Shown: one piece after another, positions 36,945 to 61,904 of the stretch
Layout: each line of letters begins with the position of its first letter
Numbering within the stretch: position 1 is the stretch's first letter
Origin: an uncultured bacterium
GTDB lineage: Bacteria > Patescibacteriota > Minisyncoccia > Phycocordibacterales > Zambryskibacteraceae
NCBI GenBank assembly: GCA_963789635.1
Contig: CAWBLF010000001.1
Span: 59,568 to 123,567, forward strand
DNA length: 64,000 nucleotides
Reading direction: 5' to 3'
Position numbers and translations under genes: made by a program
The notes under the pieces: model-generated
The model's input: only the letters and a program-made list of their open reading frames with translations
The model's database searches: none
What the model was told of the DNA's origin: nothing

Positions 36945-37988
36945 TTATAAAAGTTTTTCTTGTAAATTTTTGAGTGGTTTTTTACCAATGTGTTTGTAGG
37001 CGTGTTCCGTCAGCGTGCGCCCGCGGGGGGTGCGTTCAATGAAACCAATTTGGAGTAAATACGGTTCGTTGAATTCTTCAATGGTATCCTCTTCTTCCGA
37101 TAGAGCGGCTGAAAGGGTATTGAGCCCCACCGGGCCACCAGAAAATTTGACCGCAATCGCTTCCAGTATGGCCCTATCCGATGCGGCAAGGCCCCGTTCG
37201 TCGACACCCAAAAGCTCCAGTGCCTCCATAACAAGAGCTTCATTGAGCGGACGTTTGTTGACTTGTGCATAATCTCGGACACGCTTCAGGAGATAGTTGG
37301 CGGTGCGTGGAGTGAATCGGCTTCTTTTGGCAATTTCCGATATGGCTTCCGGTTCCACTTTTACCGCAAGAATTTTCCCCGAACGGTCCAATATTTTTTC
37401 TATCTCATCCTGGGTGTAAAATTCCAGGCGAAAAACACCACCCGAAAAACGTGAACGAAGCGGGGAAGAAATCAATCCGACTTTCGTGGTAGCGGCAATC
37501 AAAGTGAAGGGGGGTAGATCGAGCTGGATGGTGCGGGCCGACGGGCCTTTGCCGATAATGATATCGAGTACACCAGATTCCATCGCGGGGTAGAGCACCT
37601 CCTCAATGGCTTTGTTGAGACGATGAATTTCATCAATAAACAAAATATCTCCGGGAGAAAGGTTGGTGAGAATGGAGGCGAGGTCCCCGACTTTTTCAAT
37701 GGCGGGACCAGAAGTGACTTTCATTTGTGAACCGGTTTCTTTAGCGATGAGATGAGCCAGAGTAGTCTTGCCGAGACCGGGAGGGCCATAAAAAAGAATA
37801 TGTTCAGGAGGATGTTTGCGTTCGGAAGCGGCGGTAAGCAGAATTTTTAGGTTATCTTTGATGTTTTTCTGGCCGATGTATTCGTTCCAACGCGAAGGCC
37901 GGAGTGTCTGATCCAAAAAACCGACATCCTTGTCTTCATCATTTGATGAATCTCTTTTTTTACCCTCTTTTTTTGCAGTTTTTGGCAT
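36945..37988 (-). CDS. ruvB: Holliday junction branch migration helicase RuvB
   Basis: LRPSRWNEYIGQ, Walker A GPPGLGKTTLA, Walker B LFIDEIHRL and a winged-helix C-terminus ...EPYLLQIGFIERTPRGR. Confidence 0.95.
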   Translation of the reverse strand: MPKTAKKEGKKRDSSNDEDKDVGFLDQTLRPSRWNEYIGQKNIKDNLKILLTAASERKHPPEHILFYGPPGLGKTTLAHLIAKETGSQMKVTSGPAIEKVGDLASILTNLSPGDILFIDEIHRLNKAIEEVLYPAMESGVLDIIIGKGPSARTIQLDLPPFTLIAATTKVGLISSPLRSRFSGGVFRLEFYTQDEIEKILDRSGKILAVKVEPEAISEIAKRSRFTPRTANYLLKRVRDYAQVNKRPLNEALVMEALELLGVDERGLAASDRAILEAIAVKFSGGPVGLNTLSAALSEEEDTIEEFNEPYLLQIGFIERTPRGRTLTEHAYKHIGKKPLKNLQEKLL

Positions 37989-38041
37989 GCTTTTCGTCTG
38001 AAGCCTATTATAGCGAAAAAAAGAGAGAAGCGCTTAACCAC

Positions 38042-38070
38042 TTGACAGAAAAATTGTTATATGCTAGACT
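38042..38070 (+). promoter_or_regulatory. Sigma70-type promoter in front of the sRNA candidate
   Basis: TTGACA (38042-38047), a 17-nt spacer, then TAGACT (38065-38070). No protein-coding gene lies downstream on this strand. Confidence 0.5.
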
Positions 38071-38076
38071 ATTCGG

Positions 38077-38292
38077 TGATATAGGAAAGGGTAAAAGACA
38101 AGCAATTCTCCCAGCTTCTTTGGAATCCAAAATATAAATCTCTAAGCAACGAGGCTCTCGGGCTTACCAGACGTTCCTTCAAGGACGTCCTGGCTGGACT
38201 TGTTCTATGCTGGGGCTATCCTCAGAGTTACGCCGGACTTTCAGTATGATTATTGAAAGTGTTGCTTAGAGATTTATGTTTTGGATTTTTTT
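38077..38292 (+). ncRNA. Candidate structured small RNA (unassigned family)
   Basis: A 25-bp closing stem pairs 38126-38150 with 38261-38285. Its single non-Watson-Crick position is G-U only on the + strand, and it is followed by T7 (38286-38292). Internal hairpins: CCAGACGTTCC..GGACGTCCTGG and ACTTTCA..TGAAAGT. The start is inferred from the promoter. Confidence 0.5.
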
Positions 38293-38361
38293 GTAACCAA
38301 AACACTCTCTAGCCCCATTATTCATAAAAGAAAATTGCAGGCAATAGAAAAAAACAATGTG

Positions 38362-40050
38362 TCACTCTTCTTTCTCCAGGTCAATAACTCTTGCCAATTC
38401 TGCCATTGATGTCGTACCTTGAAGCACTTTTATAATACCGTCTTGTTTCATAGAGAGTATGTTTTGAGGAGCGGCCACCTTTCTTATCTCCCTTTCACTC
38501 GGGTTTGTCAGTACGACTTTTTCAATAGCTTCGTCCGCCAAAATTGCCTCAAAGATACCGATTCTGCCCACAAAACCCAACATATTGCATTTTTCACATC
38601 CGACCGATTCCCAAACCTTTTCTCTTTGTATTCCATCCAAATATGATTTGTCTGTCACACTTTCGAGTGTCGTCTCTATGATTTTTTTGTCAGCATCTCC
38701 GGCTACAACTTCTTTTTTGCAGTAAGGGCAAAGGACACGAACCAATCTTTGGGCTATGGAAATGTTGATAGCGGAAGTAATCACTTTCGGGTTTACTCCC
38801 AAGTCCATGAGACGAGGGAATGACCCCGCGGCGTTGTTTGTGTGTAGTGTCGATAAAACCAAGTGACCGGTGAGGGCAGCGTTTATGGCTGTCTCAGCGG
38901 TTTCATTGTCACGAATTTCACCGACCATAATGACATCTGGGTCTTGTCTCAGAGCGGCGCGCAATCCAGCGGCGAATGTATAATTTGTATCCTCGTTTGT
39001 TTGTGTTTGCACGATACCTTGCAAATGATATTCAATAGGATTTTCAATAGTTATCACTTTTATCTCCGGATTGTATATTTTTTTCAAAAAAGCGTAGAGG
39101 GTAGTAGTTTTTCCAGAACCGGTAGGGCCGGTGACCAATATCATCCCGTTTGGTTTGTTTATTTCATGAAGAAATATTTTTAATAGTCTGGGGTGTATGC
39201 CTCGTCCCTCGAGATCTACGGATGTGGCTTTCGGATTGAGCAATCGCAAAACCACGGATTCGGTGTAAGCGCCCGGCAGTAGGGAAGTACGAACTTCCAC
39301 ATCACCGTCGGGAATTTTGATTGAGAAGCGACCATCTTGAGCTCCGGTGACGTTTAGTTTCAGATCAGAAATAAGTTTTATGCGGGAAAGAAGGAGTTTG
39401 AAAGTTTCGTGGTCAAAATACAAAATGTCGGTGAGAACTCCATCCAAACGATACCGTAAACGCACCTGGACCTCTTCGGGCTCAATGTGTACGTCTGACG
39501 CTTTCATCGCCAAGGCTCCGGCAAGAATAATTTCAAAAATTTTCGATATGCGATAACTTTTTTTTGCTGAGAGGACCTTGTCAATTTCGTTTTTAAGCGA
39601 ACCGACGTTTGTAACATTTTTTAGAAGATTGGCAATTTCTTCGTTTGAGATATCCAAGGCGCCACCTTGTGTTTCAAATGAATAGGAAAGGTCTTTGTAG
39701 CGGTTCCACACTTTGTTCAGACTCTCGTGAGAAACCATATAAATGGTAGGGATATATCCTGCTTCTTTGAGCTTGCTCACAGCTTCTTGGGTTTCCGAAC
39801 TTTCGGGCGCCAACACAGCCACGTCAATTTTTTTATCGATTACGTTAAAGACCGCAACCTTGGCGGCGCGAGCATCTTCTTCACGGATAACCCTGAGCGC
39901 GTCAATGTTTATAGGTACAGCGGATAGGTCCAAGTAGGCCACGCCATATTTGGTGGAGAGCATTTGAGCCAGGTCCTCTTCTTCCTTTTTTTTAAGAACC
40001 TCAAAGCTTTTTAGTTGTTTTTCTTCGTTGAATTCTGGAAGATCTGGCAT
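38362..40050 (-). CDS. pilB: Type IV pilus assembly ATPase PilB / GspE family
   Basis: Walker A GPTGSGKTTTLY, Asp box, Walker B VIMVGEIRD, His box LTGHLVLSTLHTN and a tetracysteine motif CPYC...CEKC. The start is placed at MPDLPEF (40050) inside ORF 38362..40131. Confidence 0.9.
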   Translation of the reverse strand: MPDLPEFNEEKQLKSFEVLKKKEEEDLAQMLSTKYGVAYLDLSAVPINIDALRVIREEDARAAKVAVFNVIDKKIDVAVLAPESSETQEAVSKLKEAGYIPTIYMVSHESLNKVWNRYKDLSYSFETQGGALDISNEEIANLLKNVTNVGSLKNEIDKVLSAKKSYRISKIFEIILAGALAMKASDVHIEPEEVQVRLRYRLDGVLTDILYFDHETFKLLLSRIKLISDLKLNVTGAQDGRFSIKIPDGDVEVRTSLLPGAYTESVVLRLLNPKATSVDLEGRGIHPRLLKIFLHEINKPNGMILVTGPTGSGKTTTLYAFLKKIYNPEIKVITIENPIEYHLQGIVQTQTNEDTNYTFAAGLRAALRQDPDVIMVGEIRDNETAETAINAALTGHLVLSTLHTNNAAGSFPRLMDLGVNPKVITSAINISIAQRLVRVLCPYCKKEVVAGDADKKIIETTLESVTDKSYLDGIQREKVWESVGCEKCNMLGFVGRIGIFEAILADEAIEKVVLTNPSEREIRKVAAPQNILSMKQDGIIKVLQGTTSMAELARVIDLEKEE

Positions 40051-40194
40051 GGTGGATAGTATGTGGATATTGTAGCATTTTACAGTCTCCGTTCCACTCC
40101 TTTTGACGCTGTACTTGACAATTTTGGGCAAAGTATGATATAATAGACAGAGTAAAGAAGGGCATCAGGAGTCCATCTTATCGTGGAGGTCTCA

Positions 40195-48365: not shown

Positions 48366-48940
48366 TAATTTTTATTTCCAAGAATTTTTAGGGAATGTTT
48401 TACTCTTTCGCCGGTGTCGGTGATTTCTTTGGGCACTTTTTTCATGGCCTCGCGGGCTTCTCTTTGGGAGTATCCCAGAGCGGTCAGCGCCTCGATGACA
48501 TCACTATCATCGGTAATTGCCGTCTCGTCGCCCGCTACCGCCGGTCCCAATTTACCAGAAAGTTCCAAAACAATCTTTTCCGCATTCTTTTTGCTTAGGC
48601 CAGAAACTTTGGTGAGCTCGGTCGTATCCTCGGTAAATACGGCGTTGCGGAGCATTTTGATACTGGCCACATTCAGGATTGCCAAAGCTGTTTTCGGACC
48701 AATGCCGGAAATCGTAATAAGTAGTTCAAAAAAATCCAAGGTTTCTCGATCGGCAAAGCCATAAAGGTCTAGCGCCGTTTCTCGGACAGCCAAATAAGTC
48801 CAAAGAGAAGCAGTTTGTCCTTCGTGAAGAGTCGAAAGGAGTTGGCCGGTGGCGCTTATTTTGTAGCCCACGCCGTGAACATCGAGCACAACCCCGTGCG
48901 TGTTGACTGATATAACCGTGCCTGTAAGGTGAGAAATCAT
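48365..48940 (-). CDS. ruvA: Holliday junction DNA helicase RuvA
   Basis: MISHLTGTV...VLDVHGVGYKI, HhH motifs LLITISGIGPKTALAIL and TKVSGLSKKNAEKIVLEL, and the C-terminal domain EALTALGYSQREA. Confidence 0.9.
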   Translation of the reverse strand: MISHLTGTVISVNTHGVVLDVHGVGYKISATGQLLSTLHEGQTASLWTYLAVRETALDLYGFADRETLDFFELLITISGIGPKTALAILNVASIKMLRNAVFTEDTTELTKVSGLSKKNAEKIVLELSGKLGPAVAGDETAITDDSDVIEALTALGYSQREAREAMKKVPKEITDTGERVKHSLKILGNKN

Positions 48941-53098: not shown

Positions 53099-53185
53099 GG
53101 AGGAGTGGCAGAGTGGTCTATCGCACCGCTCTTGAAAAGCGGAAGGCTCGAAAGGGTCTCGTGAGTTCGAATCTCACCTCCTCCG
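53099..53185 (+). tRNA. tRNA-Ser (anticodon TGA)
   Basis: Acceptor GGAGGAG/CTCCTCC, anticodon arm CCGCT-CT-TGA-AA-AGCGG, a long variable arm, and T arm GTGAG-TTCGAAT-CTCAC. Confidence 0.9.
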
Positions 53186-53337
53186 CAATGATCCGCGAAA
53201 ATGTCTGGGAGACATTTAAACGGAGCATCATTTCTAGAGGAGGTGAGATTCGAAAGCCATAGGCCAGCGTAGGCTGGCGAGGCGGGGTAGCGGAAATTTT
53301 CAGCAGAAAATTATCCGTCGCCGAATCTCACCTCCTC
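53186..53337 (+). repeat. tRNA-Ser trailer element variant, ending in a 16-nt direct repeat of the tRNA 3' end
   Basis: An inverted 18-nt copy of the tRNA 3' end sits at 53237-53254. H2-like hairpin: GCCAGC-gtag-GCTGGC. Then GAGGCGGGGTAGCGG, H3 AAATTTTC-agca-GAAAATT, and the direct repeat CGAATCTCACCTCCTC (53322-53337 = 53168-53183). Confidence 0.8.
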
Positions 53338-61671: not shown

Positions 61672-61753
61672 GCCCGGGTGGAGAAATTGGTAGACTTACT
61701 ACCTTGAGGTGGTAGCGCCGAAAGGCATGCAGGTTCGAGTCCTGTCCCGGGCA
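61672..61753 (+). tRNA. tRNA-Leu (anticodon GAG)
   Basis: Acceptor GCCCGGG/CCCGGGC, anticodon arm CTACC-TT-GAG-GT-GGTAG, a long variable arm, T arm GCAGG-TTCGAGT-CCTGT. Confidence 0.85.
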
Positions 61754-61801
61754 CAGAATGCAAAAACATCCCACACAAACGGGATGTTTTTGCATTCTGT
61801 G
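61752..61801 (+). repeat. H1-type trailer hairpin variant (perfect 21-bp stem) abutting tRNA-Leu(GAG)
   Basis: CACAGAATGCAAAAACATCCC-acacaaac-GGGATGTTTTTGCATTCTGTG. It shares the CACAGAAT/ATTCTGTG base and ATCCC/GGGAT top with the canonical H1, while the middle segment differs on both arms. Confidence 0.85.
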
Positions 61802-61904
61802 CCTGAAAGTATGCTTTTGAGTTTACATAGCTATTTCCTGGTGTAGTATTAAGAAGCAGAGATATAAGATAAACATATTTATATTATCAGATTTATTTTA
61901 AATT

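Follow-up and report, generated by a model that had tools for sequence, protein, structure and literature searches.

6S RNA (ssrS; RF00013) is a stand-alone, strongly promoted RNA of ~150-190 nucleotides (nt), with its ends paired in a long closing stem and a second long, irregular stem opposite. The RNA that we describe here has the same outline, and likewise it probably matures from a longer precursor and probably binds protein. However, it has no covariance-model similarity to 6S. Its gene lies in a 64,000-nt stretch of DNA from an uncultured bacterium (contig CAWBLF010000001.1); we will call this whole stretch the window, and coordinates are positions within it. In the window, ruvB and a gene for a PilB/T2SSE-type ATPase (pilB) are separated by a gap of 373 nt (37989-38361), and the element is in this gap. 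A preliminary description of the window had correctly reported the gap and the location of both flanking genes on the - strand, and it proposed that a stand-alone RNA gene, with a promoter of its own, lies in the gap on the + strand. Comparison with homologs supports this proposal: it establishes the gene, strand, promoter, and predicted fold of an RNA that is transcribed from the + strand of the window.

By the same comparison, the RNA is a new family of structured small RNAs, with predicted members in more than 120 lineages of a Paceibacteria-type clade of the Candidate Phyla Radiation (CPR). Genomes of the CPR, or Patescibacteria, are very small, and almost none of their non-coding RNAs have been characterized by experiment. 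We think it reasonably probable that a stable, structured non-coding RNA is encoded here by a single-copy gene that diverges from ruvB; the ends of this RNA would be processed, and it would have a protein partner.

An RNA fold supported by compensatory changes

The features of the gene, from the promoter to the 3' end, are:

38042-38047, + strand: -35 hexamer, TTGACA (from the sequence and a promoter scan)
38062-38070, + strand: extended -10, TG-c-TAGACT (TG at 38062-38063 and TAGACT at 38065-38070), with a 17-nt spacer
38077-38123, + strand: variable 5' leader; its predicted start is ~7 nt after the -10
38124-38150, + strand: 5' strand of the closing helix P1 (from a repeat scan and alignment); the outer half is ~38124-38137 and the inner core (...AAAUCUCUAAGCAAC) is conserved in sequence
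38152-38167, + strand: P2 hairpin, AGGCU-CUCG-GGCUU in the window (from pair counts and a hairpin test)
38170-38234, + strand: P3, the long arm as a whole (from recurrent folds and pair counts)
38170-38177 and 38227-38234, + strand: P3a, the base of the long arm; all 8 pairs show compensatory changes
38181-38185 and 38219-38223, + strand: P3b, AGGAC / UAUCC, nearly invariant (from alignment)
38187-38194 and 38209-38216, + strand: P3c, CUGG/CUGG with a tandem U.G-G.U (from alignment)
38195-38208, + strand: the apex of P3, variable (from alignment)
38237-38245 and 38251-38259, + strand: P5 hairpin of 9-10 bp, CUUUCAGUA...UAUUGAAAG (from a hairpin test and pair counts)
38261-38287, + strand: 3' strand of P1 (from a repeat scan and pair counts)
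38286-38292, + strand: run of seven Ts; with P1, a terminator-like 3' end in this genome (from the sequence)

The two arms of P1 (38124-38150 and 38261-38287) are inverted repeats of 27 nt that are 96% complementary and 110 nt apart, and the helix reaches 29 pairs in the minimum-free-energy fold. The preliminary description had recognized this long closing helix, but it is 27-29 bp and not 25 bp. The + strand of the window's element folds with an energy of -83.9 kcal/mol (z = -6.1), and none of 200 shuffles was as stable; the - strand gives -64.7 kcal/mol (z = -4.6).

Using a two-arm pattern, we scanned public metagenomes and found at least 120 loci, many of them from sites in the Hainich aquifer. 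Together with loci that we had found earlier, these gave 122 distinct sequences (alignment A2), which are only ~40-50% identical to the window outside the search pattern. The conserved core is 150-175 nt among the homologs, with a mean of 163. Within the gap, close relatives (alignment A1) differ far less in the element and its promoter than in the sequence on either side.

From alignment A2, RNAalifold predicted 36 pairs, of which 24 have compensatory changes. We also built a 61-pair model from pairs that recur in the minimum-free-energy folds of individual sequences. In this model, 84.5% of cells are standard pairs, as compared to 72.2% after shuffling, and 0 of 500 shuffles reached the observed value. 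Cells that changed on both sides number 997 (398 if shuffled), and the covariation score is 0.380 (0.173 if shuffled). If the partners are slid by 1-3 columns, pairing is 38-54%. Covariation among homologous sequences beside ruvB or pilB was one of the checks that the preliminary description suggested.

Several comparisons indicate which strand is constrained. The arms in the window have a single non-Watson-Crick position, which the + strand shows as U.G and the - strand as A.C. This was the clue used by the preliminary description, and it holds across the family, with 1029 G.U or U.G cells versus 239 A.C or C.A cells. For instance, in one P1 column, an invariant G pairs with U in 61 sequences and with C in 59, with only 2 non-standard combinations (A.C). 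This split reflects a constraint at the level of RNA on the + strand. In RNAalifold, the + strand of the alignment scores -36.8, versus -12.9 for the reverse complement, which retains only P1. Considered one by one, 117 of the 122 sequences fold better as the + strand, and the mean advantage is 13.6 kcal/mol. (The covariance-model alignment, A3, was not used for pair counts because the palindromic P1 mixed forward and reverse matches.) There is no conserved open reading frame inside the element. The longest complete one has a median of 25 amino acids among the homologs, which agrees with the preliminary remark that there was none of note.

The helices vary in how they are conserved. P1 is paired in 93.3% of cells among the homologs. 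Its outer 12-14 bp vary freely in sequence while the pairing is kept, and these pairs covary (in three columns, UA63/AU48/GU8, AU56/CG53/UA10, and AU40/GC39/CG8). The inner core of P1 is fixed across a clade in which RuvB is 62-98% identical, while the rest of the RNA is only ~40-50% identical. A P2 hairpin of 4 bp or more is present in 91 of 122 homologs, as 82 distinct sequences, with a mean folding energy of -3.0 versus -1.05 for shuffles, and all 4 of its modeled pairs have changed on both sides. P5 forms in 121 of 122 homologs, as 108 distinct sequences (mean -7.6 versus -2.2 for shuffles), and 8 of its 9 pairs have changed on both sides. The preliminary description had listed P5 as an internal hairpin at 38237-38260; the hairpin is real and conserved, but it ends at 38259.

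Within the P3 arm, P3a is variable in sequence (an example column is CG23 GU20 AU18 GC18 UA16 UG14), and the internal-loop region AGGAC / (C/U)AUCCU is invariant. In P3c, the tandem wobble is UG in 106 of 122 homologs and GU in 104 of 122. Outside the search pattern, the bases that are invariant or at least 90% conserved are AGGAC, UGG, CUG, AUCCU, and the base of P5. Only ~1-3 nt link one helix to the next, which makes the fold a four-way junction, and 86 of the 122 individual minimum-free-energy folds have three branches inside P1.

A different internal hairpin, which the preliminary description placed at 38168-38194, is at 38167-38193. As an alternative local fold we rejected it, as relatives do not keep it: 55.0% of cells pair, versus 56.2% for shuffles.

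The RNA does not match any known family. Scanning the whole window with Rfam 15 (4,227 families) at the gathering threshold gave tRNAs elsewhere and no match at the element. At E ≤ 10 over 37950-38400, there was no 6S match and only scattered chance matches, and at E ≤ 1 across 16 diverse homologs, there was no 6S and no recurrent family. ARAGORN found no tRNA or transfer-messenger RNA (tmRNA) in the region. Neither the window nor the 16 homologs have an element with an Rfam match to, or a signature of, signal recognition particle (SRP) RNA, tmRNA, RNase P RNA, or an rRNA fragment. Thus, the Rfam families that the preliminary description had in view (6S, SRP, and others) do not account for the element, and its failure to see signatures of SRP, tmRNA, or RNase P agrees with both Rfam and ARAGORN. 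We also did not find a description of this RNA in the searchable literature on structured non-coding RNAs or 6S in CPR, Parcubacteria, or Paceibacteria.

Promoter, leader, and 3' end

The promoter in the window is near-consensus and of the sigma70 type. It is the TTGACA-17 nt-TAGACT of the preliminary description, which scores 10 of 12 in the promoter scan and has an extended -10 as well. On the RNA strand upstream of the element, a promoter scoring at least 10 of 13 is present in 106 of 117 loci. Among these 106 loci, 99 have TTGACA and 103 have the TGn extension, with spacers of 16-18 nt; variants of the -10 among the loci include TATACT, TAGACT, and TATATT. As controls, shuffled upstream regions score at least 10 in 11 of 117 cases, and the - strand downstream of the element does so in 4 of 119. 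The ruvB-direction strand of the same upstream region reaches 10 in 25 of 117 loci, and ruvB's own promoter is expected there. The predicted promoter is part of the conserved unit.

The leader is not well conserved. It carries indels even between the closest relatives (alignment A1), and P1 begins anywhere from 7 to 122 nt after the -10, depending on the locus. We found no correlation between leader length and the presence of a T-run among the loci.

At the 3' end, the promoter-to-terminator unit with seven Ts that the preliminary description proposed is present in the window, but it is not a property of the family. (A consensus terminator scan made no call at the T-run because the enclosed "loop" is 110 nt.) Only 39-40 of the 122 homologs have at least 5 Ts at the end of P1. 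In a crude scan, another 19 carry a separate hairpin with a T-run no more than 130 nt away, and 62 show neither arrangement. Even L001, the closest relative, has no T-run at this position. Because the T-run is absent from about two thirds of lineages, the conserved unit of the family is the promoter and the P1-enclosed domain, without the terminator. The retention of the T-run in only about a third of lineages, together with the variable leaders, suggests that the ends of the RNA are probably processed.

A single-copy gene beside ruvB

The RNA gene is single-copy and syntenic with ruvB in the window and in the related loci. The covariance model finds a single copy in the 64-kb window, where the P1 arm and its near-complement also occur once (0 matches are expected by chance). 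Each of the at least 120 loci has one element; in total, ~0.74 Mb of related loci were covered. Wherever a locus has enough flanking sequence, the next gene on the promoter side is ruvB (62-98% identical), on the opposite strand and 23-415 bp away. The orientation of the element relative to ruvB is constant in all loci. By comparison, only 21 of 52 loci have yebC, ruvB's own downstream neighbor, directly next to ruvB. On the other side of the RNA, the window has no + strand gene immediately downstream, as the preliminary description had noted, and the downstream neighbor differs among homologous loci. It is usually, but not always, PilB, which is displaced or absent in some loci.

Among the more distant relatives, L004 (RuvB 74% identical) shares the inner arm sequence of the window. 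In L005 (RuvB 66%) and L008 (RuvB 58%), there is an equivalent architecture upstream of ruvB with wholly different P1 sequences; their covariance-model scores are 39 bits and 30 bits, respectively. Near ruvB in 75 other bacterial loci, including loci labeled as Saccharibacteria, Doudnabacteria, and Falkowbacteria, the covariance model has no match. Viral contigs have 0 matches to the element.

The records for L004 and L005 are metagenome-assembled genomes (MAGs) titled "uncultured Candidatus Saccharibacteria," yet they carry the RNA, and their RuvB proteins are 74% and 66% identical to that of the window. The named relatives that are nearest to the window's RuvB are Paceibacterota, so these titles may be mislabels. 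Four other loci labeled as Saccharibacteria (L012, L016, L020, and L048) are without the RNA near ruvB. L175 has a weak extra match to the covariance model away from its main element (2431-2504, - strand; 28.6 bits, E = 4e-4, 74 nt, GC content 0.26), which is probably due to chance.

A proposed stable, protein-binding RNA

From sequence comparison, we infer a function for the RNA: it is most likely stable and protein-binding. The near-consensus promoter would give a primary transcript in which a conserved domain of ~165 nt lies between a 5' leader that varies among lineages and a 3' end that is also variable. The outer part of P1, which needs only to be double-stranded, may be a processing stalk of the kind that is a substrate for RNase III, and cleavage there would trim both the leader and the trailer. 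We propose a processing stalk because the leaders and trailers vary, because outer P1 covaries freely, and because P1 is a near-perfect duplex of 25-30 bp. In the third or so of lineages where the stalk abuts a U-run, including the window, it would double as a terminator. The mature RNA would retain the inner P1 core and P3, and the inner core together with the invariant P3b and P3c would be the likely protein-binding surface. The RNA may act in trans, as a ribonucleoprotein (RNP) or as a protein-sequestering RNA, much as 6S, Y, or SRP RNAs do.

Several points weigh against this proposal or qualify the evidence for it. It was the search pattern (ATCTCTAAGCA...TGYTTAGAGAT) that made the inner 11 bp of P1 invariant in the set of 122 sequences. 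Because the pattern fixed these pairs, the real signal in the P1 core is only its persistence across the clade, and L005 and L008 show that the core is clade-specific and not universal. The shuffle control for pairing and covariation ignores phylogeny. Since the + orientation was used to build the covariance model, the higher bit scores on the forward strand are partly circular. MAFFT misaligns variable hairpins, so P2 and P5 are understated by their pair percentages (~67%). Finally, the absolute linkage to ruvB could mean that the RNA acts on ruvB or its promoter, instead of as a general trans-acting RNP.

The conservation of the RNA in over 120 lineages, with abundant compensatory changes, implies that it is very likely important in this clade. 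It would add a well-supported RNA class that is outside all of the Rfam families to a major uncultivated branch of the bacteria. The covariance model lets annotators call a gene that is now left as an "empty" intergenic gap. The family also raises the question of what binds the invariant AGGAC/AUCCU-tandem-G.U arm and the P1 core. Its interest would rise if it were the clade's equivalent of 6S or were tied to RuvB.

The ruvB neighborhood

The features that flank the RNA in the window are:

36945-37988, - strand: ruvB, the neighbor on the promoter side, divergent from the RNA
38012-38007, - strand: TATAAT, probably the -10 of ruvB, 18 nt upstream of its ATG (read from the sequence; outside the RNA)
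38362-40131, - strand: the PilB/T2SSE-type ATPase gene, on the other flank of the gap

The best relatives of the window's RuvB are from MAGs of Candidatus Paceibacterota or the Parcubacteria group. The gene order PolA-TsaE-PilB-[gap]-RuvB-...-YebC-RuvC is kept on contigs whose RuvB is 78-98% identical. On these contigs, the called neighbors are PolA, TsaE, T2SSE, RuvB, YebC, RuvC, a class I aminoacyl-tRNA synthetase, and a penicillin-binding protein. In the window, the ruvB cluster comprises ruvB, an open reading frame of 185 amino acids, yebC, and an open reading frame of 197 amino acids; the counterparts in L001 are a DUF6624 protein, YebC, and RuvC.

The sequence around the putative -10 of ruvB, CCTATTATAGC, is invariant in alignment A1. 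This TATAAT and the -35 of the RNA (38042-38047, + strand) are back-to-back and ~30 nt apart, and the implied 5' untranslated region (UTR) of ruvB is only ~11 nt.

A RuvA homolog is encoded at 48548-48940 (- strand), ~10.5 kb from ruvB. Using E. coli RuvA as the query, tblastn gave 38% identity over 132 amino acids (E = 5e-23). Thus ruvA and ruvB do not form the usual ruvAB operon here but are unlinked. Given this homolog, we rejected the idea that the RNA replaces RuvA.

Just 3' of the RNA and just past the pilB stop codon is the motif CCATTATTCA (reverse complement TGAATAATGG) at 38317-38330. It is conserved at the equivalent site in L001, L003, L084, and L085, and it overlaps a weak promoter-like site on the - strand (38344-38317).

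Elsewhere in the window, the repeat scan found, at 61750-61803, two perfectly complementary inverted 23-nt arms around an 8-nt loop (GGCACAGAATGCAAAAACATCCC / GGGATGTTTTTGCATTCTGTGCC). Also, a tRNA gene at 53099-53185 is followed by a perfect inverted copy of 18 nt of its 3' end (arms at 53166-53183 and 53237-53254).

Other explanations

The alternative that survives best is that the RNA is a functional analog of 6S, which would bind the housekeeping RNA polymerase holoenzyme as a mimic of an open promoter. P1 would be the closing stem and P3 the terminal stem, and the P2 and P5 strands would melt to give the central bubble. The core of 150-175 nt, the two arms of ~25-30 bp, and the strong promoter of the stable-RNA type are consistent with this, as are the strands between P1 and P3, which are bubble-sized (~17-27 nt and ~26-30 nt). 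Some 6S RNAs carry hairpins in the bubble strand. Also, no canonical 6S was detected in the window, although 64 kb is a fraction of the genome. However, neither of the sensitive Rfam searches found 6S; both "bubble" strands form conserved hairpins, of varied sequence, joined by those short linkers; P1 is a near-perfect duplex instead of the bulged stem that is typical of 6S; and the strongest conservation is within helices (P3b, P3c, and the P1 core), not around the bubble. The 6S resemblance in the preliminary description is therefore not supported, with the P2 and P5 hairpins in place of an open bubble, and we consider a 6S analog to be unlikely.

A second alternative is that the RNA or its gene is coupled to ruvB. 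Either the strong divergent promoter and its transcript would control ruvB expression, by promoter competition, supercoiling, or antisense effects, or the four-way-junction RNA would act on the RuvAB/RuvC machinery for Holliday junctions. The RNA adjoins ruvB in 100% of the loci with enough sequence, in contrast to the looser adjacency of yebC and pilB; the back-to-back promoters of the window are within ~30-60 nt of each other; and the RNA is itself a four-way junction. But the loci were all selected for the presence of the RNA, and back-to-back promoters could by themselves preserve the adjacency. In the window, there is no evident overlap with the ruvB mRNA, as the RNA starts ~75 nt upstream of the probable start of ruvB and diverges from it. 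Promoter interference does not need an elaborate, covarying fold of 165 nt. As for the machinery, RuvA is encoded in the window, RuvA and RuvC recognize DNA junctions, and we know of no precedent for an RNA decoy. Overall, coupling to ruvB seems doubtful to us.

A more specific idea is that in these episymbionts with reduced genomes, an abundant four-way-junction RNA might be a decoy or regulator of RuvA, RuvB, or RuvC. If so, it would be a nucleic-acid-mimic regulator of recombination, much as 6S mimics an open promoter. Because of the 100% linkage to ruvB, the four-way junction, and the conserved lengths of the arms, we give this idea a slim chance; it is quite improbable.

We can nearly dismiss a DNA-level element, such as a miniature inverted-repeat transposable element (MITE) with terminal inverted repeats of 25-27 bp, or an invertible promoter segment with recombinase-binding repeats. 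The 27-nt arms are near-perfect, and the inner arm keeps its actual sequence across a wide clade, a pattern seen more typically in protein-DNA recognition. But the arm mismatches are overwhelmingly G.U on one strand, the interior helices covary, the orientation relative to ruvB is the same in all loci (with no inversion seen), and none of the called neighbors is a transposase or invertase gene. The preliminary description had raised a MITE of ~160 bp, for which further copies of the arms would be a sign. The arms occur once in the window and the element once per related locus, always at the same site beside ruvB, and it is absent from viral contigs, which largely refutes the MITE.

It is just as hard to credit an element on the - strand, such as a structured 5' UTR or an intercistronic processing site of a pilB-ruvB transcript: it would fit the placement between two - strand genes, the stability of the - strand relative to shuffles, and the weak site at 38344-38317, but the G.U excess, the RNAalifold scores, the folds of 117 of 122 sequences, and the strong conserved promoter all favor the + strand, on the - strand, the region leading into the element has promoters no more often than shuffles do, pilB is not always the upstream neighbor, and the probable -10 of ruvB itself (TATAAT) lies between the element and the ruvB ATG, so that the RNA is not a 5' UTR of ruvB.

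Comparison with known systems

MITEs and similar elements (such as repetitive extragenic palindromes) resemble this locus in having inverted terminal repeats of ~25 nt around a short, non-coding, intergenic segment. The element described here differs in being single-copy and syntenic, with a fixed orientation, an RNA-level constraint on pairing, and interior helices that covary.

At the level of structure, the comparison to 6S is not supported. The 6S rod has a large open central bubble, whereas this RNA has a tight four-way junction with the hairpins P2 and P5. The closing stem of 6S is typically bulged, whereas P1 pairs almost perfectly over 25-30 bp. In this RNA, conserved nucleotides are located in P3 and the P1 core and not around a 6S-type bubble.

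Y RNAs (YrlA/Yrn1, the partners of Rsr/Ro60) also have a long stem that pairs the two ends and includes a protein-binding segment that is conserved in sequence. The stem joins a multi-branched, tRNA-like module, and Y RNAs are non-coding, stable, and act as RNPs. However, the RNA described here has no Rfam match to a Y RNA or a tRNA-like module, and its P5 and P2 loops vary and lack T-loop or D-loop signatures. Bacterial Y RNA genes normally adjoin rsr, and there is no rsr (TROVE) gene among the called neighbors.

Finally, in precursors of rRNA and other stable RNAs with RNase III stems, the mature domain lies inside a long duplex that is formed by the flanking sequences. This RNA has a similar arrangement, with a variable leader and trailer, a conserved enclosed RNA, and a strong promoter. 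It differs in that the enclosed RNA is not an rRNA, tRNA, tmRNA, RNase P RNA, or SRP RNA, in that the cleavage is a prediction, and in that the inner half of the stem is conserved in sequence and is probably retained in the mature RNA.

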